A stretch of DNA of 64,000 nucleotides, taken from NCBI GenBank assembly GCA_041687355.1, contig JAWLCD010000011.1, positions 2,217 through 66,216 on the forward strand, in the 5' to 3' direction. Shown one piece after another: positions 2,946 to 64,000 of this stretch. A program made the position numbers and the translations under genes. Under the pieces are notes generated by a model that saw only the letters and a list, made by a program, of their open reading frames with translations, searched no databases and was not told where the DNA came from. This DNA is from Clostridia bacterium (GTDB taxonomy: Bacteria > Bacillota > Clostridia > Acetivibrionales > UBA4821). The number at the start of each line of letters is the position of its first letter. Within the stretch, counting starts at the first letter, position 1.

Positions 2946-3198
2946 TAACAAAACATAGGGAATAAGCCAAAAACAAAGATGGAGAGGAGTAAGCAGCACA
3001 GCCTCCAAGAGAGAAGCACCCACAGGCTGAAAGGTGCATCAGGTAAAACTGCTGAAGGTCGCTCTGGAGTTCTGCAGTTAAATATCAGTAGACTGCAGCG
3101 GGTAGTGCCGTTATACACTTTGAGTGTATATTCCACATCGGAATATAAATTAAGGTGGTACCACGGAACCTTCGTCCTTAGGAAACGGAGGTTTTTTT
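2946..3198 (+). promoter_or_regulatory. T-box leader (tRNA-sensing riboswitch), probably Val-specific
   Basis: The conserved T-box core AATTAAGGTGGTACCACGG sits at 3148-3166. It is followed by a terminator hairpin and T-run (3167-3198). An AGAGA element lies in the Stem I region near 3009. The best specifier candidate is GUC at 3058-3060 (GAAG-GUC-G), but this was not verified by folding. Confidence 0.85.
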
Positions 3199-9918: not shown

Positions 9919-10476
9919 GTGAATTTATTTGGAAGGTTGATGTTGTCGTTTTATGCATTTCTGATTGCTCTATTATCAATAACTGCTCTTGTTTTATCAT
10001 TCCTGGTTTGGGCGGGCACCATACCTTACTACACTGCCGCCGAAATGGCAGGGCTGCTCGTATCATACCAGTGGACGCTTCCAACAGTTTTGGTAACTGC
10101 TTTGCTGCTATTCGTTATTAGCCTTAGATTTATGCTCATGGGAGCAGGGAACAGGCAGGAAAGGAGCCCGGTTACAAGAGATGCTGCGGGTGGAGAAATT
10201 GCAATTTCGTTGGAAACATTTGAGAGCATTGCGCTGTCTGCCCTTAGGAAGATACCTGAGGCAAAGGATTACTCGGCAAAGGTAAGGAGAACGAATGACG
10301 GAGTGATAGTATCTATAAGCCTGTCTGTCATTCAGGATGTAAATATACCTGAGCTGGCCGAAGATATTCAGGTAAAAACTATTGAAGCTACTGAAAAAAT
10401 GACAGGAGTAAAAGTTCTGAATGTACGTGTGAAGATAGATAATATTGCTGCCGGTTTCAAGAATAAACTGGAATAG
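9919..10476 (+). CDS. amaP: Alkaline-shock-response membrane anchor protein (AmaP-like)
   Basis: An N-terminal TM pair is followed by an Asp23-like domain, and the gene sits immediately after asp23. I chose the GTG start at 9919 because GGGGGA lies upstream. Confidence 0.75.
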   Translation: MNLFGRLMLSFYAFLIALLSITALVLSFLVWAGTIPYYTAAEMAGLLVSYQWTLPTVLVTALLLFVISLRFMLMGAGNRQERSPVTRDAAGGEIAISLETFESIALSALRKIPEAKDYSAKVRRTNDGVIVSISLSVIQDVNIPELAEDIQVKTIEATEKMTGVKVLNVRVKIDNIAAGFKNKLE

Positions 10477-14110: not shown

Positions 14111-14260
14111 GAATAAGAATGCAAATAAAATCAACTTGACGTATATTCAAGCTTAACCGGCATATATATAGAACACCGCTCAAAACGGCTTAATATGAAC
14201 CTGATATGATATTTGTATATATTTTATATCTTATTGTATAATTAAATATTAATAATTAAT

Positions 14261-14877
14261 GGTGGTACAGTATTCTAGTCAGAACTGCCGATTCTGAAGG
14301 CGGGCCTAAAAATCCGCTAAGGGCACATCGATGAAGTTCCTTGTGCCAGCTTGCGACGCCCAGTCGTGGGTTGGTGCTGGGAGTTAAGGATTAGGGGCGA
14401 TCTGCAATGGCATGCGGGCGTTGACCCCTTTTCCGTGGAGACCTGCTTGTGTGGTTTGTAAACCTGGGGTCAGGCTGTGAAGCTTCCGCCACAGGATTTA
14501 TTAAACTACGCTGCAGGATTAAACCTGTTATGCGGTACTATTTGTGCTGTGTACAGTGTAGCCTGCCTTGAGTGAAATTGGTGGATAGCGGGTCTGGCAG
14601 ATGTTTATTGGCCGATAATTATCTGCTAATTGCTGCTTGAAACCTCTTTTGCAAAAGAGGCTAGGGGTTGGCCAGGGCTGTTGAGGAAATCTCCTAGACT
14701 GCTCGTAAAGAAGCATTTCGGGGATTACAGTGTGGACTAAGTGGTAATCCAGTCCCTTCTCCGGCGACGGGAAGGTTTCAGGTTTAATGGGAAACCGCTG
14801 AAACGGCGACGTTTGAGTACCTGATGGGGAAAGCCTACTGGACCTAAGCCGCAAAATTTACTCGAAGTGCTACCACC
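14261..14877 (+). ncRNA. ole: OLE-like (ornate, large, extremophilic) structured non-coding RNA
   Basis: No credible ORF is present. The region is GC-richer than the AT-rich spacer around it. It is closed by GGTGGTA (14261-14267) pairing with TACCACC (14871-14877) and contains many internal hairpins, e.g. CCTCTTTTGCAAAAGAGG at 14643-14660 and GGATTAC...GTAATCC at 14722-14750. The synteny nusB-xseAB-ispA ... small membrane protein-dxs is the hallmark OLE context. Strand is inferred from the operon direction, and the ends are approximate. Confidence 0.75.
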
Positions 14878-14977
14878 ATTTAATTAATAAATTGCAGCAG
14901 CTGGCTGAGTACAGCAGCAGTACATATAGAAGTAAATCTGGTTTAAAACAGATAAACAGGGGACTGGTGAAAAGTTT

Positions 14978-15616
14978 TTGAGTGAAAACCATAGTAACGG
15001 TGATGTAAAGAAAAAGGCAAGAGGTAACCCACACAAGAATAAAAGCCGGAGATGGATTATTATCCTGGTTATTACCACTATTTTTCTCTCTGTGTCTATC
15101 AGCAGTGCTTCATCTATAATAATCCAAAAGATTAACCTGTTTGTTGCAATATGCGTATTACTGGTTATAATTCTTATAGGAATACTTTTTGACATTGTAG
15201 GAATAGCTGTGGCTGCTGCGGATGAAACTCCATTTCATGCCATGGCTTCAAGTAAGGTAAAAGGCTCGAAAAACGCTATTAAACTAGTAAGGAATGCAAG
15301 TAAGGTTACAACGTTCTGTAATGACGTCGTTGGTGATGTTTGCAGTGTAATAAGCGGTTCTACCAGTGCATTCATTGTTCTTAGGCTTGCGCAGATTTTA
15401 AAAGGAATCGATATTTCAGTTCTAGGTATAGCTATAAGTGCATTGGTTGCAGCCCTTACCGTTTTGGGGAAAGGTCTGGGTAAAACTGTTGCGATATCAA
15501 AGAGCAATCAGATAGTATACAGTGTAGCGCTTATGCAATATATTGCCTTTAACAGGTTTAATATAAAAGATTTATTTAAAAAGGATTCGGAAGGGAAAGA
15601 GGATAGACATGAGTAA
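14978..15616 (+). CDS. oapA: OLE-associated membrane protein (OapA-like)
   Basis: 212-aa polytopic membrane ORF with a TTG start, lying immediately downstream of the structured RNA. Its end overlaps the dxs start. The assignment rests on context and topology only. Confidence 0.65.
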   Translation: MSENHSNGDVKKKARGNPHKNKSRRWIIILVITTIFLSVSISSASSIIIQKINLFVAICVLLVIILIGILFDIVGIAVAAADETPFHAMASSKVKGSKNAIKLVRNASKVTTFCNDVVGDVCSVISGSTSAFIVLRLAQILKGIDISVLGIAISALVAALTVLGKGLGKTVAISKSNQIVYSVALMQYIAFNRFNIKDLFKKDSEGKEDRHE

Positions 15617-17501
15617 AATTCTTCCATTAGTTAATAATCCATCTGATATCAAGGGACTTACTGATGAGCAACTCGACCAGCTTGGGAGAGAGCTGAGGGA
15701 GTTTCTGATTTCGTCGGTATCAAAAACCGGCGGACACCTGGCATCAAATCTTGGTGTTGTTGAATTGACTATTGCCCTACACCTCGTATTTAATACACCT
15801 TATGACAAGGTTGTATGGGATGTTGGCCACCAGTCGTACGTACATAAAATTCTTACCGGAAGAAAGGATAGCTTTGATACCTTAAGACAACTGAATGGTA
15901 TCAGCGGGTTTCCAAAAGTTAATGAAAGTGCTCATGACTGTTTTGATACAGGACACAGCAGCACTTCTGTTTCAGCTGCACTTGGAATGGCAAGGGCAAG
16001 AGATCTTAGAAACGAAAAAAACTCGGTAGTAGCTATTATCGGGGACGGAGCACTAACCGGAGGTATGGCCTTTGAAGCTTTAAATGATGCAGGGCGGTCT
16101 CCGAACAATCTGATTGTGGTACTCAATGATAATGAGATGTCTATTGATAAAAATGTTGGCGGCCTGTCCAGCTGTCTGAACAGGATACGAACCCAGCCAA
16201 TATATTTCAAAGTCAAGAGGGACCTTGATCTCCTTCTAAAGAAGATACCTGCAATCGGACCCAAGGTTACAAAGACCATAGATAAGGCAAAGGGAACCAT
16301 CAAATACATGATGCTGCCGGGAATGTTTTTTGAAGAACTGGGTTTTAAATATATAGGTCCTGTTGACGGGCATGATGTAGGTGAACTCCGGAAAGTACTT
16401 ACAAAGGCTAAAGCACTTGGAGGGCCCGTGCTGATTCATATTCTGACCCAGAAGGGGAAGGGTTACTCATATGCTGAGAAAAATCCTCACATATTTCACG
16501 GGATATCGCCCTTTGATATTGAAACCGGGGAAATAAAAAAGAGCGTTAGCGTAAAGGATTACTCGACTGTCTTTGGAGAAGAGCTAACCGATATTGCAAG
16601 GCGTGATGAAAGTGTGGTTGCAATAACAGCCGCCATGCCTCATGGAACTGGTCTTCAGAACTTTGCTTTGGAGTTTCCGGAGAGATTTTTTGACGTAGGT
16701 ATAGCTGAACAGCATGCGGTCACAATTGCAGCCGGTCTCGCATCAGAAGGTTTTAAGCCTGTAGTTGCCATATATTCTTCATTTCTGCAGAGAGCTTATG
16801 ACCAAATAGTTCACGATGTCTGCACGCAGAACCTGCCTGTAGTTTTTGCAATTGACAGAGCGGGAATAGTAGGAAATGACGGGGAAACACATCAGGGGTT
16901 GTTTGACTTGTCCTATCTTTCTCATATACCTAATATGTCGGTAATGGCTCCGAAGGACTTCGATGAGTTCCGCCATATGCTTAGATTTTGCACTGAATTC
17001 AAGGGACCCATTGCAATACGATACCCGAGAGGGTCAGCCAAAGATATACCTGTTGAGAGAATACAACCTATTGAGTATGGCAGAGCCGAACTGCTTCAGC
17101 AAGGGGAAGATATAACCATTGCCGCCTGTGGCAAGATGGTTCGTGTTGCTCTTAAGGTGGCAAGGGAGATAATGAAGTTTGGCATGAGTGCTGATGTAAT
17201 CAATGTAAGATTTATCAAGCCCCTGGACACAAAAATGATACTAGCATCGGCTGAAAAGACCAAGAAGGTTGTAACCATGGAGGATAATGCTATAAGCGGT
17301 GGTTTTGGAAGTGCAGTCCTCCAGGCTATAGCTCAGGGTGGTATTGAGGGAGTAAAGACCAAGATGTTCGGATATCCCGATGAATTTGTAAGACATGGAA
17401 ACACAGATCAGATTCACAGGCTTTACGGTCTGGACTACCAGTCAATTGCGTGTGAGATATTGAATACCTACAAGGTGGGGAAAAAGTTTAAGGTGTTATA
17501 G
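15609..17501 (+). CDS. dxs: 1-deoxy-D-xylulose-5-phosphate synthase
   Basis: 630 aa with GGHLASNLGVVELT, a TPP-binding GDGALTGGMAFEALN motif and transketolase-like C-terminal domains. Confidence 0.97.
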   Translation: MSKILPLVNNPSDIKGLTDEQLDQLGRELREFLISSVSKTGGHLASNLGVVELTIALHLVFNTPYDKVVWDVGHQSYVHKILTGRKDSFDTLRQLNGISGFPKVNESAHDCFDTGHSSTSVSAALGMARARDLRNEKNSVVAIIGDGALTGGMAFEALNDAGRSPNNLIVVLNDNEMSIDKNVGGLSSCLNRIRTQPIYFKVKRDLDLLLKKIPAIGPKVTKTIDKAKGTIKYMMLPGMFFEELGFKYIGPVDGHDVGELRKVLTKAKALGGPVLIHILTQKGKGYSYAEKNPHIFHGISPFDIETGEIKKSVSVKDYSTVFGEELTDIARRDESVVAITAAMPHGTGLQNFALEFPERFFDVGIAEQHAVTIAAGLASEGFKPVVAIYSSFLQRAYDQIVHDVCTQNLPVVFAIDRAGIVGNDGETHQGLFDLSYLSHIPNMSVMAPKDFDEFRHMLRFCTEFKGPIAIRYPRGSAKDIPVERIQPIEYGRAELLQQGEDITIAACGKMVRVALKVAREIMKFGMSADVINVRFIKPLDTKMILASAEKTKKVVTMEDNAISGGFGSAVLQAIAQGGIEGVKTKMFGYPDEFVRHGNTDQIHRLYGLDYQSIACEILNTYKVGKKFKVL

Positions 17502-24756: not shown

Positions 24757-24782
24757 AAATCAGGCAGTATGCCTGATTTTTT
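24757..24782 (+). terminator. Rho-independent terminator of the PLP-enzyme gene
   Basis: AAATCAGGC-AGTAT-GCCTGATTT followed by a T-run. Confidence 0.75.
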
Positions 24783-24994
24783 ATCCGATGAATACCGCCG
24801 CTAAGACTCCCCTCTTGTTCAAGTGGGAGCATTAAAGATGGACACTATCGCTAAGATTTCTTTGAAATCAAGCGACTAGTAGCCTAAGGCGGCGCTACGT
24901 CCCTGGATAACGGCTTCTAAGATTCAGATGGAGAAAGAAACTCCACCTGAATCCAAGAATCCTGTTTATCCGATGAATACCGCCGCTAAGACTC
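24780..24994 (+). repeat. Dispersed structured repeat, copy A (one ~188-bp unit plus a 30-bp restart of the next unit)
   Basis: The 30-mer TTTATCCGATGAATACCGCCGCTAAGACTC occurs at 24780-24809 and again at 24965-24994. The whole unit recurs in reverse complement at 58214-58401. Confidence 0.85.
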
Positions 24995-25094
24995 TCCTAG
25001 AGGCTTGAATAATATTGGTGTGATTGCGGCAATAATAATACCTGTGAACTTATAAGTGCTTAAGCAGAGAAATAAGGCCGGGAGATGAAAAATC

Positions 25095-34368: not shown

Positions 34369-34386
34369 TCTTACCTCCTGTTTTCG

Positions 34387-34495
34387 TAGCCTCCGGAGTT
34401 AGCTGACGGGTTCGGGAAAGGCGGTACATACCCTACCGTATCAAACGGATTCACCCCAATATGGTTCCCCCGTACCCTTAATAGGGACTAGGCTA
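34387..34495 (-). promoter_or_regulatory. cyclic-di-AMP riboswitch (ydaO/yuaA class) in the 5' leader of the SH3b-NlpC/P60 gene
   Basis: The minus strand reads TAGCCT...AAGGGTACGGGGGAACCA...GGGGTGAATCC...ACGGTAGGG...CCGCC...CCCGAACCCGTCAGCTAACTCCGGAGGCTA. This carries the conserved ACGGGG, GGGGUGAAUC and CCCGAA-CCGUCAGCUAAC blocks, with a P1 pairing TAGCCT/AGGCTA. It ends ~10 nt before the RBS. Confidence 0.8.
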
Positions 34496-34597
34496 TATAG
34501 ACACAACAAATTATGCTCTCTAGCCTGAAAGCATAATTCTGTTTAATTTACTGTTTCATATAACACTACAGGTATATTTCAAAATGATTACATTTTT

Positions 34598-36731: not shown

Positions 36732-36995
36732 AATCATAATATGGTTAAAACGTTGACGGGGAAGAGTATATTGAGTATGCCTGCCTGAAGAGAGCCGGGC
36801 AAGGTGAAATCCGGCGGAGGCTGTCAATAGAAAATCACCCCCGAGTGCCTTACGAAAGGTTTAACGAGTAGAAACGGCCGCTGACTGCGTTAAGGTCAAA
36901 TGAGAGAGTGGAAGGACATATGTTTTTTCCTTCACTAATGTGGGTGGTACCACGAGAGCCTGGCTCTACGTCCCTGTTATGACGTAGGGTCTTTA
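36732..36995 (+). promoter_or_regulatory. T-box leader, Ile-specific
   Basis: T-box core AATGTGGGTGGTACCACGAG at 36937-36956. The AGAGA box lies in GAAGAGAGCC. The candidate specifier is AUC at 36834-36836 (AGAAA-AUC-A). The terminator hairpin CTACGTC...GACGTAG (36966-36987) is followed by a T-rich tract. Confidence 0.85.
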
Positions 36996-37024
36996 TTATT
37001 ATATAAAGAGGAGAGATGATAGGA

Positions 37025-44035: not shown

Positions 44036-45070
44036 ATGAATATAAATATTCTGGACAGAATAATCCAGGACGGGGGTCTGCTCAGAACCCAGATTGGAAT
44101 AAATGGATGGGAAGACAGTGTAATAATCTCTCATAACAGCAATATAATACAGATAAACCTTGCTCCTGTTTATTACAGCATGGCTGTAATGGCAGGTGAC
44201 CTTATCAGATGCAAGTATCATTATGATGGAGTGGAATATCTGATGGAAGGCCAAATTGAACAGGTTACCATAAATGAGATTCCTTCAATGTTCATCAGAA
44301 TTCATAATGTGAGTAACTTCAATAATAAACGTAAGAACCGAAGGTTGGATGTGCGTCTGGGGGCTGGGGTCAGGCTGAAAGAAAGTGATGAGCTTACATA
44401 CTATTGCATTGTTAACAACCTGAGTACCAGCGGCCTGGGACTATTAGCAAAAAGGAGCTTTGATATTGGAAGCAGTATAATAGTAGAGGTATTAACAAGT
44501 AGCCAGAATACTTTTTCTCTAAGAGGGCAAGTTGTAAGGCAGATGAAAATAGAAGACTATTATGAAATAGGTATAAGCTTGAGTGAGAAGGATGAAGCGG
44601 CCAGAAAAGATGTGGAATATATTATTAGTAATTACTATGAGCTCAGTGAGAAGCTTATAGGGGATACAATTGAGAAAGTAAACCGGAATACCAGTGGTGT
44701 ACCGAAGAACCAGACTGTCATGATTGTGGAGGATAGTCATTTTACAAGAATAATCATAAAAAAGCTTCTATCCCTGCAGGGGTTCTCAAGGATTATCGAA
44801 GTAGCAGACGGACCTCAGGCGTTAAGCCTCGCAGGAAAATTAAAACCGGATATAATAATTCTTGATATTATTCTCCCAACAGTAAACGGCAACGAGATAA
44901 TTGAAGAGATACATAAGTCCAGTTCCGATTCCAGGATTATTGTGGTCTCAACCGTAAGCAGCAGAAAGATGATTGACGAGGTTAAGACCAAGGGAGTATG
45001 TGAATATGTTATCAAGCCTTTTGACCATAAGGAATTGGTTGAGGTTGTTGAGAGAATTTCAAAATTATAA
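44036..45070 (+). CDS. PilZ domain - receiver (CheY-like) domain fusion protein
   Basis: PilZ c-di-GMP motifs RKNRR (RxxxR, aa 99-103) and NLSTSG ([DN]xSxxG, aa 128-133). The C-terminal receiver has MIVEDS, the phospho-acceptor context IIILDIILP and a KP motif (VIKPF). Confidence 0.8.
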   Translation: MNINILDRIIQDGGLLRTQIGINGWEDSVIISHNSNIIQINLAPVYYSMAVMAGDLIRCKYHYDGVEYLMEGQIEQVTINEIPSMFIRIHNVSNFNNKRKNRRLDVRLGAGVRLKESDELTYYCIVNNLSTSGLGLLAKRSFDIGSSIIVEVLTSSQNTFSLRGQVVRQMKIEDYYEIGISLSEKDEAARKDVEYIISNYYELSEKLIGDTIEKVNRNTSGVPKNQTVMIVEDSHFTRIIIKKLLSLQGFSRIIEVADGPQALSLAGKLKPDIIILDIILPTVNGNEIIEEIHKSSSDSRIIVVSTVSSRKMIDEVKTKGVCEYVIKPFDHKELVEVVERISKL

Positions 45071-54417: not shown

Positions 54418-54456
54418 AAGGACTCCTGCCTCAGGTAGACAGGAGTCCTTTTTTTA
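54418..54456. terminator. Bidirectional terminator between gcvPB and the convergent MCP gene
   Basis: AAGGACTCCTG...CAGGAGTCCTT followed by T7. Confidence 0.85.
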
Positions 54457-56241
54457 TTCAACCTTAAATTTCTTGACCAATTCAGTCAGCTCGGATGCCA
54501 GGAAAGCAAGTTCCTGGGCAGTTGCAGACATTTCCTGTATGGATGCGGTTTGTTCCTCTGTTCCAGCTGATATTTCCTGTATGGATGCGGAAGACTGCTG
54601 AGAAATTGCAGCAACATTTTGTACTGCGTTAACTACCTGCTCAGCGTGTGACAGCTGGGTCTGTGCCGACTGTGAAATCTGGGTTGTAGTTTGAGAAGTT
54701 TCTTTGATAGCAGAATTAATATCTTCAAAGGTCCTATACAGGTTATTTATGATTTCCTTACCTTCCAAAACTTCTTTGGAGCCAACTTCGATAGATTTGA
54801 CCGAACGTATAGTCTCGTCCTGAATTCCCCTGATAAGCACTTCGATTTCTTTTGCAGCCCTGGTACTTTCTTCTGCCAGCTTACGAACTTCTTCAGCTAC
54901 TATGGCAAACCCTTTTCCCGATTCCCCTGCCCTTGCTGCCTCAATCGCAGCATTCAAAGCGAGAAGATTGGTCTGGTCTGCGATGGTTGTAATGGTGGAA
55001 ATAATATCTCCAACATGCTGTGATTTCTTACCCAGTGCACGTATTACCTCGGTCGTGTCGGTGATAGTGCTGGTTATATTGTTCATCTTCTCAACCGCTG
55101 CTACGGCAGCAGCAGCACCTACCTGGGAGCGGTCTATAGCCTGGTTGGATGCATTCACAGCAGATTGGGCATTCAAATATACCTGGTTGGCCAGAGCAGC
55201 AACCTGTTCTATCAATTTAGAAGTTTCATCAATACGTTCTGTCTGGGATGCAGCACCTGAAGAGACTTCCTGTATGGATGATGCTATTTCCTGGGATGAT
55301 ACATTAACTTGCTGGGCACTGGCAGACAGAATCTGTGAGAACGAAGATACCTTGTGAGATGAAGTGGCTATTCCTTTTATAATGTCCCTCAGGCTAACAA
55401 TTATATGATTCATGCTGTCAATTAGTTTTCTTATATCACTAGCAGTTTTCTGACGTATATTTATGGTCCTGCTCAAATCTCCTGTCGCTACACCACTTGA
55501 TACATTTACAAGGTCAGGAATAGGGTGAGTAATTGAATTGCCTATATACAGAGCTGCAATCAGGTTAAGGATTGACAGTATTATGGTTGCTGTGATTACC
55601 GCAAGAATTACTATGTGTGTAATTTGCTTTTCCATTCCCTTGGCGTTTGCTGCAAATTCATTATCTACATCATGTGAAGCATTAATCAGTATGCTTATTT
55701 CCTTATCAATTTCTTCAGATAGCTCGGAATCTACGTTGTTTTTTTCAAACGCAACAAGTTTTTCGAAGAGCTCTGCCTTTTTAAGATTGCGGTCCAATGC
55801 AACCTTAGAATGGTCAGCGAGAGCTTTGACAGAGTCTCCTTTTGCCAGTTTAAAGAAATCTATGGTAAACTGTACATTTCTGGCATCATCAATGTTGAAG
55901 CCAAATTTACTCAGGTTTAAATCAACCAGACTTTCGAGGCTGCTGTAGGACTTATTGGAGAACTTCTCAAATAGAGTTCCTAAAATAGTCAGTGAATCAA
56001 TGCACTCGTTGAACCGTTTAAAATCTTCCACATCCTCGGAGGAGACATAACTCTTATAATAGATATCACACATACTCTCAAATTCATTGAAGGTTGACTC
56101 AGCCTTCATCAATGTTGATGTTCCTAAGATAATCTTTTCACCAAACCAGACTAGGGATACTATCATGATTAGTTCAATCACAAAAAGGCATAAAATCAAG
56201 ATTAGTTTACCCTTGATGGTTGATGCAGTAGGTCTTAGCAT
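54454..56241 (-). CDS. Methyl-accepting chemotaxis protein
   Basis: 595 aa with two TM segments around a helical periplasmic region, a HAMP domain and a conserved MA signalling hairpin ([34 protein letters not shown]). Confidence 0.9.
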
Positions 56242-56410: not shown

Positions 56411-56614
56411 TCATACTACTTCATATCCGGCTGTCCTTATCACTTTTTTTATGGTATCGCCATCGGTTTTTTCATCATCAAACGTGATTTTTACGTTACG
56501 GGTTTTAAAATCAAATTCTATGTCGCTGGCACCTGCATTTTTAACGCGGTTTTCAATTTTTTCTGCACAGGATTCACAGTTCATGCCTGGCAGGTTGAAC
56601 TCAACGGCTTTCAT
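56411..56614 (-). CDS. copZ: Heavy-metal-associated (HMA) domain protein, CopZ-like metallochaperone
   Basis: 67 aa with the GMNCESC (MxCxxC) motif and a ferredoxin-like fold length. Confidence 0.8.
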   Translation of the reverse strand: MKAVEFNLPGMNCESCAEKIENRVKNAGASDIEFDFKTRNVKITFDDEKTDGDTIKKVIRTAGYEVV

Positions 56615-58213: not shown

Positions 58214-58401
58214 TAAACAGGATTCTTGGATTCAGGAGGAGTTTTATTCTCCATCTGAATGTTAGAATCCGTTATCCAGGGACGTAGCGCCGCTTAGACT
58301 ACTAGTCGCTTGATTTCAAAGAAATCTTAGCGATAGTGTCCATCTTTGATGCTCCCACTTGAAGAAGGGGAGAGTCTTAGCGGCGGTAGTCATCGGATAA
58401 A
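58214..58401 (-). repeat. Dispersed structured repeat, copy B (reverse complement of 24780-24968)
   Basis: Manual alignment to copy A gives about a dozen mismatches/indels over ~188 nt. Confidence 0.85.
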
Positions 58402-58431: not shown

Positions 58432-60606
58432 ATGCCAATTCCAAATCGTGGGCAGGAGGTATCAAAGGTCCCCCAATTCAGACACACTATAGTGTTCAGA
58501 GTTATTATAAGTCTGGTCATTTTAACCCTTAGTACCATCATATGTATAATAGGGTTTTACAGGAGTATGCCTATTCTAATGGTAATAGGCCTTCTGTTTA
58601 TTGGCCTGGTGTTAATTGACGCATTTAAAAGGTTCAACCTGAAACTGATAGCCATTTTGCTTACATTTACTTATGTTCCGGCAGTTGCACTGCTGTGGCC
58701 CCTTGTTCACCACTTCCATTTTCAGATTATTGATAATTCGATATATAGATTGGAATCACTTGCATTTACCAAGGCTACTTACATCGACGAGTGGTTGAAT
58801 CAAAGGGACAACGACCTTCTTTTCCTTGAAGAAAATATTAAGACATTAAATTACGGAATGTCTTCGGAGTCAGGCATTCAGGATAACCAATTATACATTA
58901 GAAAAACCGGTGAACTTCTTGATAAGTTTACAAAATCATCCCCAATTTATAGAGATGTTTTTATTATGGATATGAATGGACAAGCAGTATTGTCTTCCGA
59001 TAATACTGCTGAACCCGGAGATTATTCAATGCTTGTACAAAACTCAAACCTGAGTCGAGAGCTCATTGTTTCAGAGGTATTTCTGGATTCAAGACAGCCT
59101 GTAATTACTGTCTTTAAGACTATTGAATTTGCAGGGGCTGAGCATATTGCAGGAATAAAGTGTAATTTGCTTGGACTGGAAGATGTAATTAATCCAGTAA
59201 CAGGAACTGACAGGCCTGAAGACACGCTTAAGATATCTCTAGTAGATGAAAATGGATATTATACTATTACAAGCGATAAAGAAAACATCCAACCGCTTAA
59301 GTCCAAGATACATAAAAACTTTTCTAAATATCTGCAGCAAATTGGAAATATGGACTTGTATTATTATAATGATAAGGGCTTAAAAACCGTAGGAGCCTAC
59401 AGCAAAGTTAATAAAACAGGATGGTATGTAATCAGTGAGCAGTCTTTCAGGGAAATAATCTATAATGTAGATAAGAACCTGATGGACGTATTTATAATAA
59501 TGATTGTAAACTTTGCTGCTGTTCTGATTTTTGCTCCTGTTTTTTCCAAGGGGATTACCGGTCCTATCCTTAAGATAAGGGACATGGCAATTGAGGGAGC
59601 ATCAGGGAAGCTTGAAGTGCATCACGAAGAGAAAAGGCGTAATATGTTCGAGTATAGGGAAGCTGATGATACCATGAAGGCTTTCAAAAAAATGATTATC
59701 ACACTCGGTGAACTCAAAGAGTCATTGGAATCAAAGGTAGAGGAGAAGACCCGAATGGCAGCGCAGCTTAAAGAATCAAATGAGGAATTAAATGCTCAGC
59801 AGGAAGAGCTTACCTACCTTAATGAAGCTCTTTCAAAGACCAATGACGACCTGAAAGCAGCATACAATGACTTGCAGAAAACACAGACCAAGCTTATTCA
59901 GAATGAAAAAATGGCTTCACTTGGCATGCTTGTGGCCGGAGTGGCCCATGAAATAAACAGTCCGCTTGGTGCTATCAACAGTAATATTGGAAATTATGAG
60001 TCAATAATCAGGAAACTGGAGTCAAAAGCGGGTAATGATGATGAAATAAACAAGATTACTCAGGACCTCAAGACTCTAAACAATATGAATACTCTGGCGT
60101 GTGACAGGATAATAAAAATAGTACGCAGCCTGAAGAGTTTTGCAAGGCTGGATGAAGCGGAGTACAAGCAGGCTGACCTGCATGAAGGTATTGACAATAC
60201 CATTATACTGCTCAATCATAGAATCAAGGACAAGATTAAGATAATAAAAGGGTATGGCGATTTGCCCAGAGTGAATTGTTATGCCGAGCAGCTTAACCAG
60301 GTTTTTATGAATTTACTTATAAATGCTATAGAGTCAATACAGACCGAAGGTACAATACACATAAAAACCTACCATGAGGACAAGAAGATATATATAAAAA
60401 TCAAGGATAATGGTGTAGGTATCAAGAAGGAGCATATTGACAGGATATTTGACCCTGGATTTACAACCAAAGGAGTAGGGGTGGGAACTGGACTTGGATT
60501 GTCAATAGTGTACAATATTATTGAAAACCATAAGGGGAATATCCTGGTGGAAAGCCAGGAAGGCCTTGGGACTGAGTTTACTATTGAGCTGCCCTTGCAG
60601 CAGTAA
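58432..60606 (+). CDS. Sensor histidine kinase with 3-TM/extracytoplasmic Cache-like sensor, HAMP, coiled coil, HisKA and HATPase_c domains; no cognate response regulator adjacent
   Basis: 724 aa with H-box VAGVAHEINSPLG, N-box FMNLLINAIES, G1 KDNGVGI and G2 GTGLGLS. Confidence 0.9.
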   Translation: MPIPNRGQEVSKVPQFRHTIVFRVIISLVILTLSTIICIIGFYRSMPILMVIGLLFIGLVLIDAFKRFNLKLIAILLTFTYVPAVALLWPLVHHFHFQIIDNSIYRLESLAFTKATYIDEWLNQRDNDLLFLEENIKTLNYGMSSESGIQDNQLYIRKTGELLDKFTKSSPIYRDVFIMDMNGQAVLSSDNTAEPGDYSMLVQNSNLSRELIVSEVFLDSRQPVITVFKTIEFAGAEHIAGIKCNLLGLEDVINPVTGTDRPEDTLKISLVDENGYYTITSDKENIQPLKSKIHKNFSKYLQQIGNMDLYYYNDKGLKTVGAYSKVNKTGWYVISEQSFREIIYNVDKNLMDVFIIMIVNFAAVLIFAPVFSKGITGPILKIRDMAIEGASGKLEVHHEEKRRNMFEYREADDTMKAFKKMIITLGELKESLESKVEEKTRMAAQLKESNEELNAQQEELTYLNEALSKTNDDLKAAYNDLQKTQTKLIQNEKMASLGMLVAGVAHEINSPLGAINSNIGNYESIIRKLESKAGNDDEINKITQDLKTLNNMNTLACDRIIKIVRSLKSFARLDEAEYKQADLHEGIDNTIILLNHRIKDKIKIIKGYGDLPRVNCYAEQLNQVFMNLLINAIESIQTEGTIHIKTYHEDKKIYIKIKDNGVGIKKEHIDRIFDPGFTTKGVGVGTGLGLSIVYNIIENHKGNILVESQEGLGTEFTIELPLQQ

Positions 60607-60639
60607 AATGTGAACGGATTGATGGAGTGAGCTGGAGAT

Positions 60640-61044
60640 ATGCAGGGTTTATTAATAGTTTTTGGAGTACTATCATTCCTATTTTATCTGAAGAGTATAG
60701 TGCTTTATCCTACAATAAGATTAATTGATAGACTTGCCGGCAGTCGGGAACAACAGAAACTGGCCAACAGTCCATGGACTTCCAGGCTGCATTGTGCTGC
60801 AGGAAGTCTGTCATTTGTGTTTGCATTACTGCACATAGTGGATAAGCTTGATAAGATAATGCTGACACCGGGTTACATATCGGCTTTCTTATTATTCCTG
60901 ACCGCATTGTCAGGTTTCTTATGGAAGTATATCGATGAAAAAGAATTGATAAGCAGGTATTGGGGATTATTCCATTACCTGTTTACAGTTGGATTCTTCA
61001 TTAGCTTAGTAGTACATATAATTGATAAGATGCGTATATTATAA
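60640..61044 (+). CDS. Four-TM membrane protein with duplicated H-I-[VI]-D-K motif (DUF4405/cytochrome-b-like?)
   Basis: 134 aa made of two similar halves, each ending in LLHIVDKL or VVHIIDKM. Its 3' end overlaps the convergent MCP gene by 6 nt. Confidence 0.55.
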
Positions 61045-63078
61045 TAAATTACTACTGGAGTCAGAAATTTCAATATCCAGTTTTTTATTTATGCTGCCGA
61101 GGTAAGCTGCGAACTCATGGGAGTACCGAGATATATCACTAGCGGCTGAAGCTATTTCCTCAATACTGGAATTAATGCTGAGTATGGATTGAGAAATATT
61201 ATCAAATGAACCTTTGGAGACTATGGTAAGGTCCATTCCTTTATTTACTTCAACAATTCCTTCCTCCATTTCCTTAACCACCGCTTCTATATTCGAAATT
61301 ACCTGCTTAATCAGGTCAGATATCTGCTTGGAGGCACTGCTTGACTGTACAGAAAGCTTGCTTATTTCTGAAGCAATAACTGCAAAACCTTGTCCGGATG
61401 AACCTGCTTTTGCCGATTCAATTGTTGCATTTAATGCCAGCAGCTGGGTTTGATTTGCAATATAGCTTATAGTTTCATTTACTGCATCTATGTTTTTTGA
61501 TTGGTGATTCAGTTCATTGGTAAATGTCTGAAGGGTCTTCATTTTTGACGAAATATTTTCCATTTGTTTAGTAGTAAGATTAATAGATTGGTCCCCCTTG
61601 TGCAGAAATTCAGATGAAACTTGCATATTCCCAAGTATTCCACTTGACAGCTCACTGATGTGTTTTATATTATCAATAATCCTGTTCTCATGCTCCACCA
61701 AGTGGGACTGAGTTGCTTTCATTTCATTAAATGCCTGCTCAAGCTTCCGGTTCGACTGTGAAAGGTTATTGTTCAGTACTGACATTTCGTCCTGCTGAGT
61801 ATACAGCTTTTCATTTGCATCTTTAAGCTCCTCAGCTGCAAGGGTTTGTTGTTGTATCCGTGCTTCGAGGGATTGGTTGAGCGTACGGATTTTATTTACC
61901 AAGCTGTTAAAAGCATTAGCCATTCTGTCTATTTCAGCAATTTTAATTATATTAAATCTACTTTTTTTGAATAAAACCGAGAGGTCACCTTCAGATCCCT
62001 TCAGCATCAGCTTTTCCAAGAGAGTGATTGGCTTTGTAAGCCCGAATGAAAACAGAAGGGTAAAAACGATTACTACAACAAACGTTGTTAATAGAACAAC
62101 AAAGGGATTCATGAAAGACCTCTCATGGATTACTGATATCAACTCACTATAATCCTGCTCGGTTATTACATACCAGCCTGTTTTATCTACAGCAGAATAC
62201 GCTCCTATGGCTCTGCTGCCGGTAAAATTCTTATAGAACAAGTCACGGTTATTTATCTGTGAAAGGTAGGATTCAATACTGACACCTATACCGGAAGATT
62301 GAAGCTTGTCTTCAGACCACGCAAGAAAAAAACCGTTACTGTTCACAACATAAGTGTTCACAGTATTGTTTGGAACCCTGTCTGAAAGTTTTAAAGAGCT
62401 TATACTTGAGAAAATACTTGAAAGGTCAAGCTTTGAAGATATAATGAATGACCAATTCTGGTTAGTAACAGGTATGGAAATAACAATTGACGGTTCACCG
62501 GTCTCAAGACCTGCATCATAGATACCGTGCTTTACTTCAGTTACCGTGCCTTCAGCAGTTTTATCAGTAGAAATGAGTATATTCCCTGATGAATCCTGGA
62601 TTGAGATTTCCTTATAAGCCTGTGATGATTCTTTTATATTCTCAATTAGACTGCTGATGTTCTGTTCTCTGACAGATGAATCCCGGGATGTAAAGGGATT
62701 TTCTTTCAATTCATTCAAACTGCCTATCAGTTTGAGGTCTTCCTGTCTTTCCTCTATCCATTCATTTATTTCGTGGGCGTGTTTCTGTGAAGCCAATTCC
62801 AATGTATGCGTAATAGAATTGAGGTTTTCAACGTCGAATTGATGGACTAATGACCAGGCGACAGCTACAAGCGGGACAAGTGCAAATGTTGTAAGCAGTG
62901 CTGCCATCTTAAGCTTGAATTTTCTTATAAATAATATAAGGCACACACCGCTTAAAAACAGACCGGCAACCATAAGCAAAGGCTGTGACGCCGTGAAGCC
63001 TGTGCGGGCAATAATCAATCCTGCAATAACCGGTACAAGTTTCAATACCAAAAGTGCTGCAGTACGTGGATTAGCCAC
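61039..63078 (-). CDS. Methyl-accepting chemotaxis protein carrying the same type of sensor module as the histidine kinase at 58432
   Basis: 679 aa. The N-terminal TM bundle, Cache-like region, HAMP domain and coiled coil are colinear with the HK. The C-terminal MA domain reads [31 protein letters not shown]. Confidence 0.88.
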
Positions 63079-63106: not shown

Positions 63107-63736
63107 TTATACAAAAGGCACATCAGAAATAGTTCTGTGCCGGAGTAATGCTTTTCTGACACTGTAGAATTTTAGTATTGAGGAAGCCGTTGTAAATACG
63201 AGTATGCCCAGGTAGAGTGTATATAAAGAATTCAAATCAATACAAAGCAGCTTGCAGGTCAATATTACACACGGAAGGGAGTAAAACAGTGAGCTGGCAA
63301 TCCTTCCGGGGATATCATAATGAAGAACTGTATTATCTTTTAGCTTATGTCCAGACAAGCACCTTTTAACAATTTCCGAGGAAATAAGGAACTCAAAAAA
63401 TTTATACGATGCCAGCATAGTGAGCCAGACAGGAATAATACCCATCAAATTTAGTGCAAGGTAGGAGCAGAAAACAAACAAAAAGTCGCTCCAGACATCC
63501 AGGTAGCTTCCAAATACTGAAGTTTTATTTGTAAGCCGGGCAATCCAGCCGTCCAGGATGTCTGATATCCTAATAAGGATGAATACAAATAATGCAGTAT
63601 TAACGGCAAAATAAACATAAGGAAACTCCGCAGTCAGTCCTTCATATATGAAGAATACAAAAAGAGGTATAAGTAATACCCTTGTCAACGTAATAATATT
63701 CGGTACTGTAAAGTATGTCCTATATACTTTACTCAT
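63107..63736 (-). CDS. CDP-alcohol phosphatidyltransferase family protein (second paralog in the window)
   Basis: 209 aa with motif DILDGWIARLTNKTSVFGSYLDVWSD. Confidence 0.8.
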   Translation of the reverse strand: MSKVYRTYFTVPNIITLTRVLLIPLFVFFIYEGLTAEFPYVYFAVNTALFVFILIRISDILDGWIARLTNKTSVFGSYLDVWSDFLFVFCSYLALNLMGIIPVWLTMLASYKFFEFLISSEIVKRCLSGHKLKDNTVLHYDIPGRIASSLFYSLPCVILTCKLLCIDLNSLYTLYLGILVFTTASSILKFYSVRKALLRHRTISDVPFV

Positions 63737-64000
63737 TTTTCTCCAATCTGTCTACCGAATTCTATGGCTTTATCAGCAGTATAGTCCTTATATCCAAATA
63801 CATGTTTGTTGGAAGCACTTTCTATACCCAGCGCTTTTTCCAGAGGTTCAAACATTGAAGGTTCATTTTGTCCTCCAGCTGTAATGAAAAGGCCGATTTT
63901 CTTTTCTGATGGGTTCTGAAGGGTTCCCATAAACTCAAGCAGTTTTTTCGATGGCTGCAGGTACCATGGTGTGCCGAAAACCATAATATCGAAGCTGGCT
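63733..64000 (-). CDS. Flavodoxin-like protein, C-terminal part (5' end outside the window)
   Basis: The reading frame is open to the window end. It has a flavodoxin-type C-terminal sequence (VFGTPWYLQPSKKLLEFM ... IGLFITAGG). Its stop overlaps the start of the downstream gene (ATGA). Confidence 0.65.
   Translation of the reverse strand, partial: ASFDIMVFGTPWYLQPSKKLLEFMGTLQNPSEKKIGLFITAGGQNEPSMFEPLEKALGIESASNKHVFGYKDYTADKAIEFGRQIGEK

Follow-up and report, generated by a model that had tools for sequence, protein, structure and literature searches.

Taxis governed by the redox state of a cofactor held within the receptor polypeptide is known from Aer (FAD-PAS), HemAT (globin) and Desulfovibrio DcrA (c-heme). 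How anaerobes steer along redox gradients is poorly understood; Aer, CetAB and HemAT, the energy-taxis sensors known so far, rely on soluble PAS or globin domains. In di-heme cytochromes b, two histidines per helix stand 14 residues apart, as on helices B and D of bc1 cytochrome b. The DUF4405 cytochromes and the smaller, homodimeric FezC bind heme b experimentally and have four central conserved histidines; DUF4405 is found in an FMN_bind/ApbE flavinylation context (PMC11334425). The wiring of one dCache_1 sensor family to several receptor outputs is well established (dCache_1AA, PMC8915833; dCache_1AM, PMC10589655). The locus described here lies in a 64,000-nt stretch of contig JAWLCD010000011.1 (assembly GCA_041687355.1, Clostridia bacterium), which is called the window below. 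It encodes an orphan sensor histidine kinase (HK), a methyl-accepting chemotaxis protein (MCP) and, between them, a small membrane protein that is a candidate cytochrome b (Table 1). The HK and the MCP carry one homologous input module, and across genomes the small gene accompanies the MCP.

HK residues 24-492 and MCP residues 10-464 form a single colinear alignment with 149/471 identities (32%, E=5e-71, BLASTP). An earlier note on this DNA had proposed such colinear input regions, and all peptide matches quoted in it fall inside the 471-aa alignment. The extracytoplasmic parts alone are 30% identical over 244 aa (E=1e-26), so the similarity exceeds the generic resemblance of transmembrane (TM) and coiled-coil segments that the note had named as the alternative. 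In a multiple alignment with orthologs the similarity stops at the start of the HK DHp helix (HK ...TQTKLIQNE / KMASLGMLVAGVAHEIN; MCP ...TQSHLVEHE / NRIIDNIKH). The alignment, this exact junction and the extracytoplasmic match bear out the proposal of one homologous input module on two outputs. Hydropathy places three TM helices ahead of the Cache-like domain and one behind it in both proteins. The extracytoplasmic domain spans about 250 aa between TM3 and TM4, a length and place compatible with a double PAS-like fold. dCache_1 (PF02743) is named in precomputed annotations and scores 26.1 bits in the HK and 33.8 bits in the MCP, below the Pfam gathering score of 45. HAMP (PF00672, gathering score 25) reaches a sub-threshold 19.1 bits in the MCP and has no match in the HK. 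What the earlier note named HAMP is accordingly termed HAMP-like here. A PDB sequence-profile search with the sensor module returned no solved relative. A sequence search of HK and MCP found no flavinylation-type [ST]G[AS][ST] motif and no CxxCH motif, and neither protein has a Pfam match to a PAS or globin domain.

Conservation is uneven along the module. Identity between HK and MCP is 42% in the N-terminal TM bundle (69% between orthologs), 20% in the helix plus membrane-distal Cache module (32-33%), 41% in the proximal Cache module (46-60%), 27% in TM4 (67-90%) and 40% in the coiled coil (55-76%). The TM segments are 69-90% identical between HK orthologs, and within the helix and distal region the similarity of HK to MCP is detectable only over the first 94 residues. 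Such a pattern is more in keeping with sensing at the membrane than with a ligand pocket under strong constraint, and suggests that function depends most on the membrane or proximal region of the module. At the outer membrane face the HK bundle closes with the motif W-x-L-V-H-[HQ]-F, which is invariant; its histidine (His93) is kept in all 8 aligned modules.

The input module is rare. Querying 5.8 billion proteins with the HK input region brought up only four other HKs (51-54% identity), and a search with the MCP profile only two further MCPs; the searches, covering billions of proteins, give totals of 6 HKs and 4 MCPs with the module. A scan of species-representative genomes met it in two metagenome-assembled genomes only ('Clostridia bacterium 30dZY2.bin.108' and 'Clostridiales bacterium UBA4821'). 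Neither the sensor alignment nor the small-protein alignment found relatives in scans of JGI metagenomes. In a neighbour-joining tree the HK clade and the MCP clade are reciprocally monophyletic (200/200 bootstraps), so the duplication is older than all sampled lineages, and HK and MCP are ancient paralogs. A second HK of UBA4821 (L009, 5167-7152, + strand) has an ordinary single-TM dCache sensor. Behind that sensor come a linker, a NEEL-type coiled coil and a kinase much like those of the window HK (43% identity over aa 353-492), evidence that input domains have been swapped in this lineage.

The earlier note had supposed that HK and MCP answer to the same ligand. In this explanation the two Cache domains bind one extracellular ligand and report it in parallel to gene regulation and chemotaxis, with the small protein accessory to both. 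The homology of the extracytoplasmic domains favours it, as does the fact that the HK and MCP genes are neighbours in three genomes, and homologous dCache_1 domains of one ligand class occur in different receptor types (PMC8915833, PMC10589655). However, the helix and distal region, where the ligand site usually lies, shows the lowest conservation in the module and the TM bundle the highest; since the duplication is also old, the supposition of a common ligand is not supported and is regarded here as improbable. The distribution of the genes, given below, also counts against it.

The small protein has four histidines in all (H51, 60790-60792; H65, 60832-60834; H112, 60973-60975; H126, 61015-61017), two on helix 2 (H51, H65) and two on helix 4 (H112, H126). 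Among 1.84 billion cluster representatives, HMMER picked out 26 relatives at E<=1e-3; all four histidines are invariant in 26/26, and the 14-residue spacing within each pair never changes. The four central conserved histidines of DUF4405 (PF14358) are thus present. Family matches were to DUF4405 in 16/19 cases at E<=0.01 (best E=5e-9), to Ni_hydr_CYTB in 6 and to Ferric_reduct in 4. The small-protein profile finds the protein P0011 (E=9.5e-8), which itself scores 31.9 bits on DUF4405, above the gathering score of 26.7. An AlphaFold2 model built on a 19-sequence alignment (pLDDT 91.4, pTM 0.83) has helices at residues 2-32, 45-65, 77-98 and 102-133; it was used in place of a run on a 2-sequence alignment that was too poor (pLDDT 58). 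Four helices are also indicated by hydropathy, in place of the six TM helices of DUF4405, so the protein would be a minimal version of that architecture. Some relatives carry PepSY-like N-terminal regions, and remote four-TM relatives (P0019, P0029) lie in TetR-FMN_bind-ApbE operons. A PDB sequence-profile search with the small-protein family found nothing. Taken together, these features make the product of the gene, with high probability, a minimal DUF4405-like di-heme cytochrome b.

Helix 1 is followed by a loop with five K/R against two D/E, so by the positive-inside rule the N-terminus would be outside, with H51 and H112 on the cytoplasmic side and H65 and H126 on the outer side. H-I-x-D-K motifs adjoin H65 and H126, and the similarity of the two halves of the protein to each other is weak (E=0.013). 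The earlier note had read the motifs as a possible bis-histidine site. A heme protein is indeed very probable; a single site is not what is seen, as each half has two conserved histidines (H51/H65 and H112/H126). That the four histidines hold Fe, Cu, Zn or Ni in place of heme, making the protein a metal-handling or metal-sensing accessory, is very improbable. In its favour, histidine-rich motifs could coordinate metals, one such motif (LVHHFHF) lies in the HK at the outer face of the membrane and a heavy-metal-associated (HMA) protein is encoded nearby, but two histidines per helix, 14 apart, on two of four TM helices is the layout of a di-heme cytochrome b. The family matches to DUF4405, Ni_hydr_CYTB and Ferric_reduct, and the heme b found experimentally in DUF4405 and FezC (PMC11334425), also tell against a bare metal site. 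A spurious open reading frame (ORF) was likewise considered and rejected on the grounds of the 26 relatives, the confident model and a dN/dS of 0.22 (purifying selection) against the ortholog in 30dZY2 (L001), where dS is the same as for neighbouring genes. A relationship between the TM bundle of the receptors and the cytochrome was rejected at an hhalign probability of 0.14%.

The related loci share the order ACPS, Aminotran_4, HK, (small gene, MCP), CDP-alcohol phosphatidyltransferase and flavodoxin-like protein. All three genes of interest are present in the window, in 30dZY2.bin.108 (L001 and L008, on two contigs) and in L003 (HK 52%, small protein 41% and MCP 50% identical). L002, L004 and L005 have the HK only, directly beside CDP-OH_P_transf in each. 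SRR27457923 (L014 and L015) has the small protein (30% identical) and the MCP (51% identical) and no HK; here the small gene abuts the MCP 3' end and the upstream gene is a uracil-DNA glycosylase (UDG). In L002, which belongs to UBA4821, a 49-aa ORF right after the HK (10220-10369, + strand) is similar to TM helix 1 of the small protein (E=0.004); it is probably what survived a deletion of the MCP and the remainder of the cytochrome gene. In 4/4 loci (window, L001/L008, L003, L014) the small gene adjoins or overlaps the orthologous MCP gene at the latter's 3' end. It never occurs without the MCP and is missing from all three MCP-less loci. It therefore tracks the MCP and not the HK, though it lies on the HK strand. 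What is conserved is the pair of MCP and small protein, which can do without the HK, as the HK can do without them. Of the three-gene linkage put forward in the earlier note, recurrence of the trio was confirmed in two other genomes, but the trio is not the conserved unit. A ligand common to HK and MCP agrees poorly with three genomes that have the HK without the MCP and small protein and one that has these two without the HK. The HK is, in addition, unaltered by the presence or absence of the small protein, its TM bundle being essentially the same in the multiple alignment with or without the cytochrome at the locus.

On the strength of this linkage the cytochrome may act as the redox sensor partner of the MCP, the explanation favoured here, though with less than even confidence; the HK would not be its partner. 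In its boldest form this reading is a membrane-embedded two-protein redox-taxis receptor, in which the cytochrome would be the dedicated sensing subunit of the MCP through the unusual four-TM bundle and the paralogous kinase would use the same bundle for gene control; that form is given a probability of roughly one in four. The H51-H112 pair near the cytoplasmic face and the H65-H126 pair near the outer face would ligate two stacked b hemes. To judge from the family, these hemes would conduct electrons across the membrane like a wire, as in DUF4405, MsrQ and PepSY-like cytochromes. On one side the quinol pool or a cytoplasmic donor, and on the other an extracytoplasmic acceptor, would determine the redox state of the cytochrome. 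The TM bundle or the membrane-proximal region of the MCP would read that state, or the state of the outer-face acceptor, and the pair would act as a redox or energy-taxis receptor feeding CheA. The HK paralog would sense a related cue in the membrane or envelope and signal to a response regulator encoded elsewhere, with no need of the cytochrome. Persistence of the pairing at 30% small-protein and 51% MCP identity, and with UDG in place of the HK upstream, is consistent with such a partnership.

Several points weigh against the two-protein receptor. Contact between cytochrome and MCP is presumed from gene linkage only, and their genes are convergent and not co-transcribed, which is unusual for obligate partners. 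The pairing was seen at four loci, all from one narrow Clostridia lineage. One deletion or insertion of adjacent genes would give the same presence/absence pattern without a functional link; the HK tree, examined also for whether the HK-only loci form one clade (a single loss), is star-like. With adjacent genes, one lineage and a star-like tree, a few deletions could therefore yield the pattern without functional coupling. The MCP keeps a full extracytoplasmic dCache-like domain and could bind an ordinary chemical ligand. Heme binding by the small protein is itself deduced from sequence likeness: its own score on the DUF4405 hidden Markov model is 17.0 bits (E=0.0089), below the gathering score, and Foldseek of its model against the PDB gave no significant match (best E about 1), the weak matches including heme-binding TM domains (NOX, cytochrome b561, FdnI and a designed two-heme bundle).

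The same facts bear on a second explanation, in which the neighbourhood is coincidental. The cytochrome would be a stand-alone electron-transfer module for an extracytoplasmic redox protein (e.g., the flavodoxin-like protein two genes away, or an unlinked flavoprotein), its adjacency to the MCP would be inherited synteny, and HK and MCP would be ordinary chemical sensors. Other contexts of the cytochrome family are ApbE/FMN_bind electron-transfer operons and not signalling genes (PMC11334425), and a membrane-anchored flavodoxin-like protein is conserved nearby; the convergent genes, lacking co-transcription, and the origin of every supporting locus in one lineage also suit a coincidence. However, the flavodoxin-like and CDP-OH_P_transf genes remain in the three cytochrome-less loci, so the presence of the cytochrome is independent of theirs. 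The sequenced flanks of the window locus and of the related loci, including L001, L003 and L014, contain no ApbE or FMN_bind gene, and the MCP pairing outlasts both the sequence divergence and the swap of the upstream gene. Coincidence is the main rival and is considered only slightly less probable than the sensor partnership.

Table 1. Features of the kinase, cytochrome and chemoreceptor locus (window coordinates).
Feature	Coordinates	Strand	Basis or remark
Sensor HK, orphan, 724 aa: three N-terminal TM helices, dCache-like domain, TM4, HAMP-like linker, NEEL-type coiled coil, DHp (His506), HATPase_c	58432-60606	+	ORF list; HATPase_c 89.8 bits
HK N-terminal three-TM bundle, aa 20-96	58489-58719	+	hydropathy segments 16-45, 35-68, 70-92
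HK dCache-like extracytoplasmic domain, aa 97-345	58720-59466	+	sub-threshold dCache_1
HK TM4, HAMP-like linker and coiled coil, aa 346-492	59467-59907	+	last segment in common with the MCP
HK transmitter: DHp helix with H-box VAGVAHEINSPLG (His506), HATPase_c	59908-60600	+	
Small protein, putative DUF4405-like four-TM cytochrome b, 134 aa	60640-61044	+	ORF list
MCP, 679 aa, GTG start	63078-61039	-	ORF list; MCPsignal 110.7 bits
MCP input module homologous to HK, whole	61687-63063	-	alignment, hydropathy
MCP TM1-3	62827-63063	-	
MCP dCache-like domain	62125-62826	-	
MCP TM4	62038-62124	-	
MCP HAMP-like segment	61873-62037	-	
MCP coiled coil	61687-61872	-	
MCP signalling (MA) domain, aa 465-679, variant hairpin tip	61042-61686	-	MCPsignal
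CDP-alcohol phosphatidyltransferase	63107-63736	-	syntenic neighbour kept in every related locus; context only, not shown to be part of the system

The coordinates of HK, small protein and MCP are as the earlier note had them, including the 6-nt overlap of the 3' ends of the convergent small gene and MCP. The small ORF starts 33 nt past the HK stop codon. The transmitter of the HK is that of a sensor histidine kinase: HATPase_c is far above its cut-off of 26.4 bits, HisKA scores 17.5 bits (cut-off 26.9), and an H-box AHEIN with His506 is present. By NCBIfam the kinase core is nearest the AtoS/ZraS type, all matches being far under the equivalog cut-offs. Orthologs of the HK occur at 5 other loci (51-80% identity). 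In the MCP, input residues 1-464 are fused to a short MA domain of about 215 aa, for which the MCPsignal cut-off is 34.6 bits; orthologs in L003, L008 and L014/L015 are 49-79% identical. Around the hairpin tip the MCP is 36% identical to the canonical MCP of the window, with substitutions in the tip. The tip region (aa 545-580) departs from the canonical sequence, and like substitutions are seen in the orthologs; the MCP could be a member of a short-heptad class or signal through a separate chemosensory pathway. The canonical MCP (595 aa, 54454-56241, - strand) lies about 2 kb upstream of the HK and has no recognised sensor domain; it is followed by the HMA small protein (56411-56614, - strand).

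As the earlier note had observed, no response regulator adjoins the locus. The cognate regulator was sought in the window, where the sole receiver domain belongs to a PilZ-REC fusion (44036-45070, + strand) for which no link to the HK was established. This gene is 13 kb away amid housekeeping genes (tRNA-modification, cysteinyl-tRNA synthetase). On the other side of the locus, the flavodoxin-like protein with an N-terminal membrane anchor (63733-64000, - strand) is cut by the window end; L008 (4741-5334) has it complete. Its stop codon overlaps with the start of the CDP-alcohol phosphatidyltransferase gene, and this gene pair adjoins the locus in every related genome, whether or not the cytochrome is there. 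The anchored protein is probably extracytoplasmic and is a possible electron acceptor.

A structured dispersed repeat of about 145 nt lies in the HK leader (58256-58400, + strand; fold -63 kcal/mol, z=-5.1). It is about 95% identical to a copy 33 kb away (24776-24926, - strand), which is accompanied by a partial copy (about 24961-25000, - strand). The repeat has no Rfam match and is absent from the orthologous HK leaders of L002, L004 and L005; it could be an element like a MITE (miniature inverted-repeat transposable element) or REP (repetitive extragenic palindrome), or an unknown RNA. The window also holds a full-length Ornate Large Extremophilic (OLE) RNA (14246-14892, + strand; 558.6 bits, E=4e-161), with ORFs just downstream at 14978-15616 and 15609-17501; its presence presumably places the organism among anaerobic or extremophilic Firmicutes. 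Other RNA elements are a c-di-AMP riboswitch (34373-34504, - strand) and two T-box leaders (2967-3182 and 36744-36978, both + strand), one of which precedes a class I aminoacyl-tRNA synthetase gene at 37016 with a zf-FPG_IleRS domain.

Should the two-protein receptor be real, a chemoreceptor that reads a dedicated transmembrane cytochrome would be a new sensing principle and a new coupling of electron-transport status to chemotaxis in anaerobic Firmicutes, and DUF4405-like cytochromes would gain a signalling role beside electron delivery. Should the adjacency be coincidental, an ordinary paralogous receptor pair and a small cytochrome remain. In either case the locus offers a clean natural example of a complete input module (TM bundle through coiled coil) serving either a kinase or an MCP, and the precise HK/MCP junction is useful for receptor engineering. 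The earlier note had not recognised the arrangement as a described one, and none was found in the open-access literature; an MCP paired with a DUF4405-like or b561-type cytochrome is likewise not described in open-access full texts.

The small protein resembles the DUF4405 and FezC cytochromes, which are related to MsrQ and PepSY-like proteins, in its helical membrane bundle and in four central, most-conserved histidines (PMC11334425). It differs in having four TM helices in 134 aa, whereas described DUF4405 proteins have six and FezC needs a homodimer, and in that its conserved neighbour is a chemoreceptor, with no ApbE/FMN_bind. Among split redox-taxis receptors, CetA/CetB of Campylobacter jejuni comes nearest in concept, having a redox-cofactor protein separate from an MCP-type transducer (PMC3558505). 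However, CetB is a soluble PAS protein and CetA is without a periplasmic sensor, whereas here an integral-membrane di-heme cytochrome candidate stands beside an MCP with its own dCache-like domain. The present genes are convergent and no PAS/FAD domain was found by Pfam, so the analogy is functional only. No sequence relationship between the two systems is expected. Unlike Aer, HemAT and DcrA, the present HK and MCP have no CxxCH or flavinylation-type motif and no PAS or globin match.

Compared with dCache_1AA and dCache_1AM, the shared unit is much larger, with three further TM helices and with linker and coiled coil beside the Cache and TM parts; it is also very rare, the paralogs are adjacent and the Cache domain is below the Pfam cut-off. 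By eye only, no R-x-W-Y type amino-acid motif was seen. The HK shares with the AtoS/ZraS kinases a DHp/CA core with an EKMASLG..AGVAHEINNPL H-box and HATPase_c, but has another input module and no adjacent NtrC-type regulator. The parts are thus of kinds already known: an AtoS/ZraS-like core, an MCP signalling domain, a divergent dCache and a DUF4405-like cytochrome. What is new is their combination, a rare, anciently duplicated 3TM-dCache input on two outputs together with a minimal, putatively di-heme cytochrome that follows the chemoreceptor.

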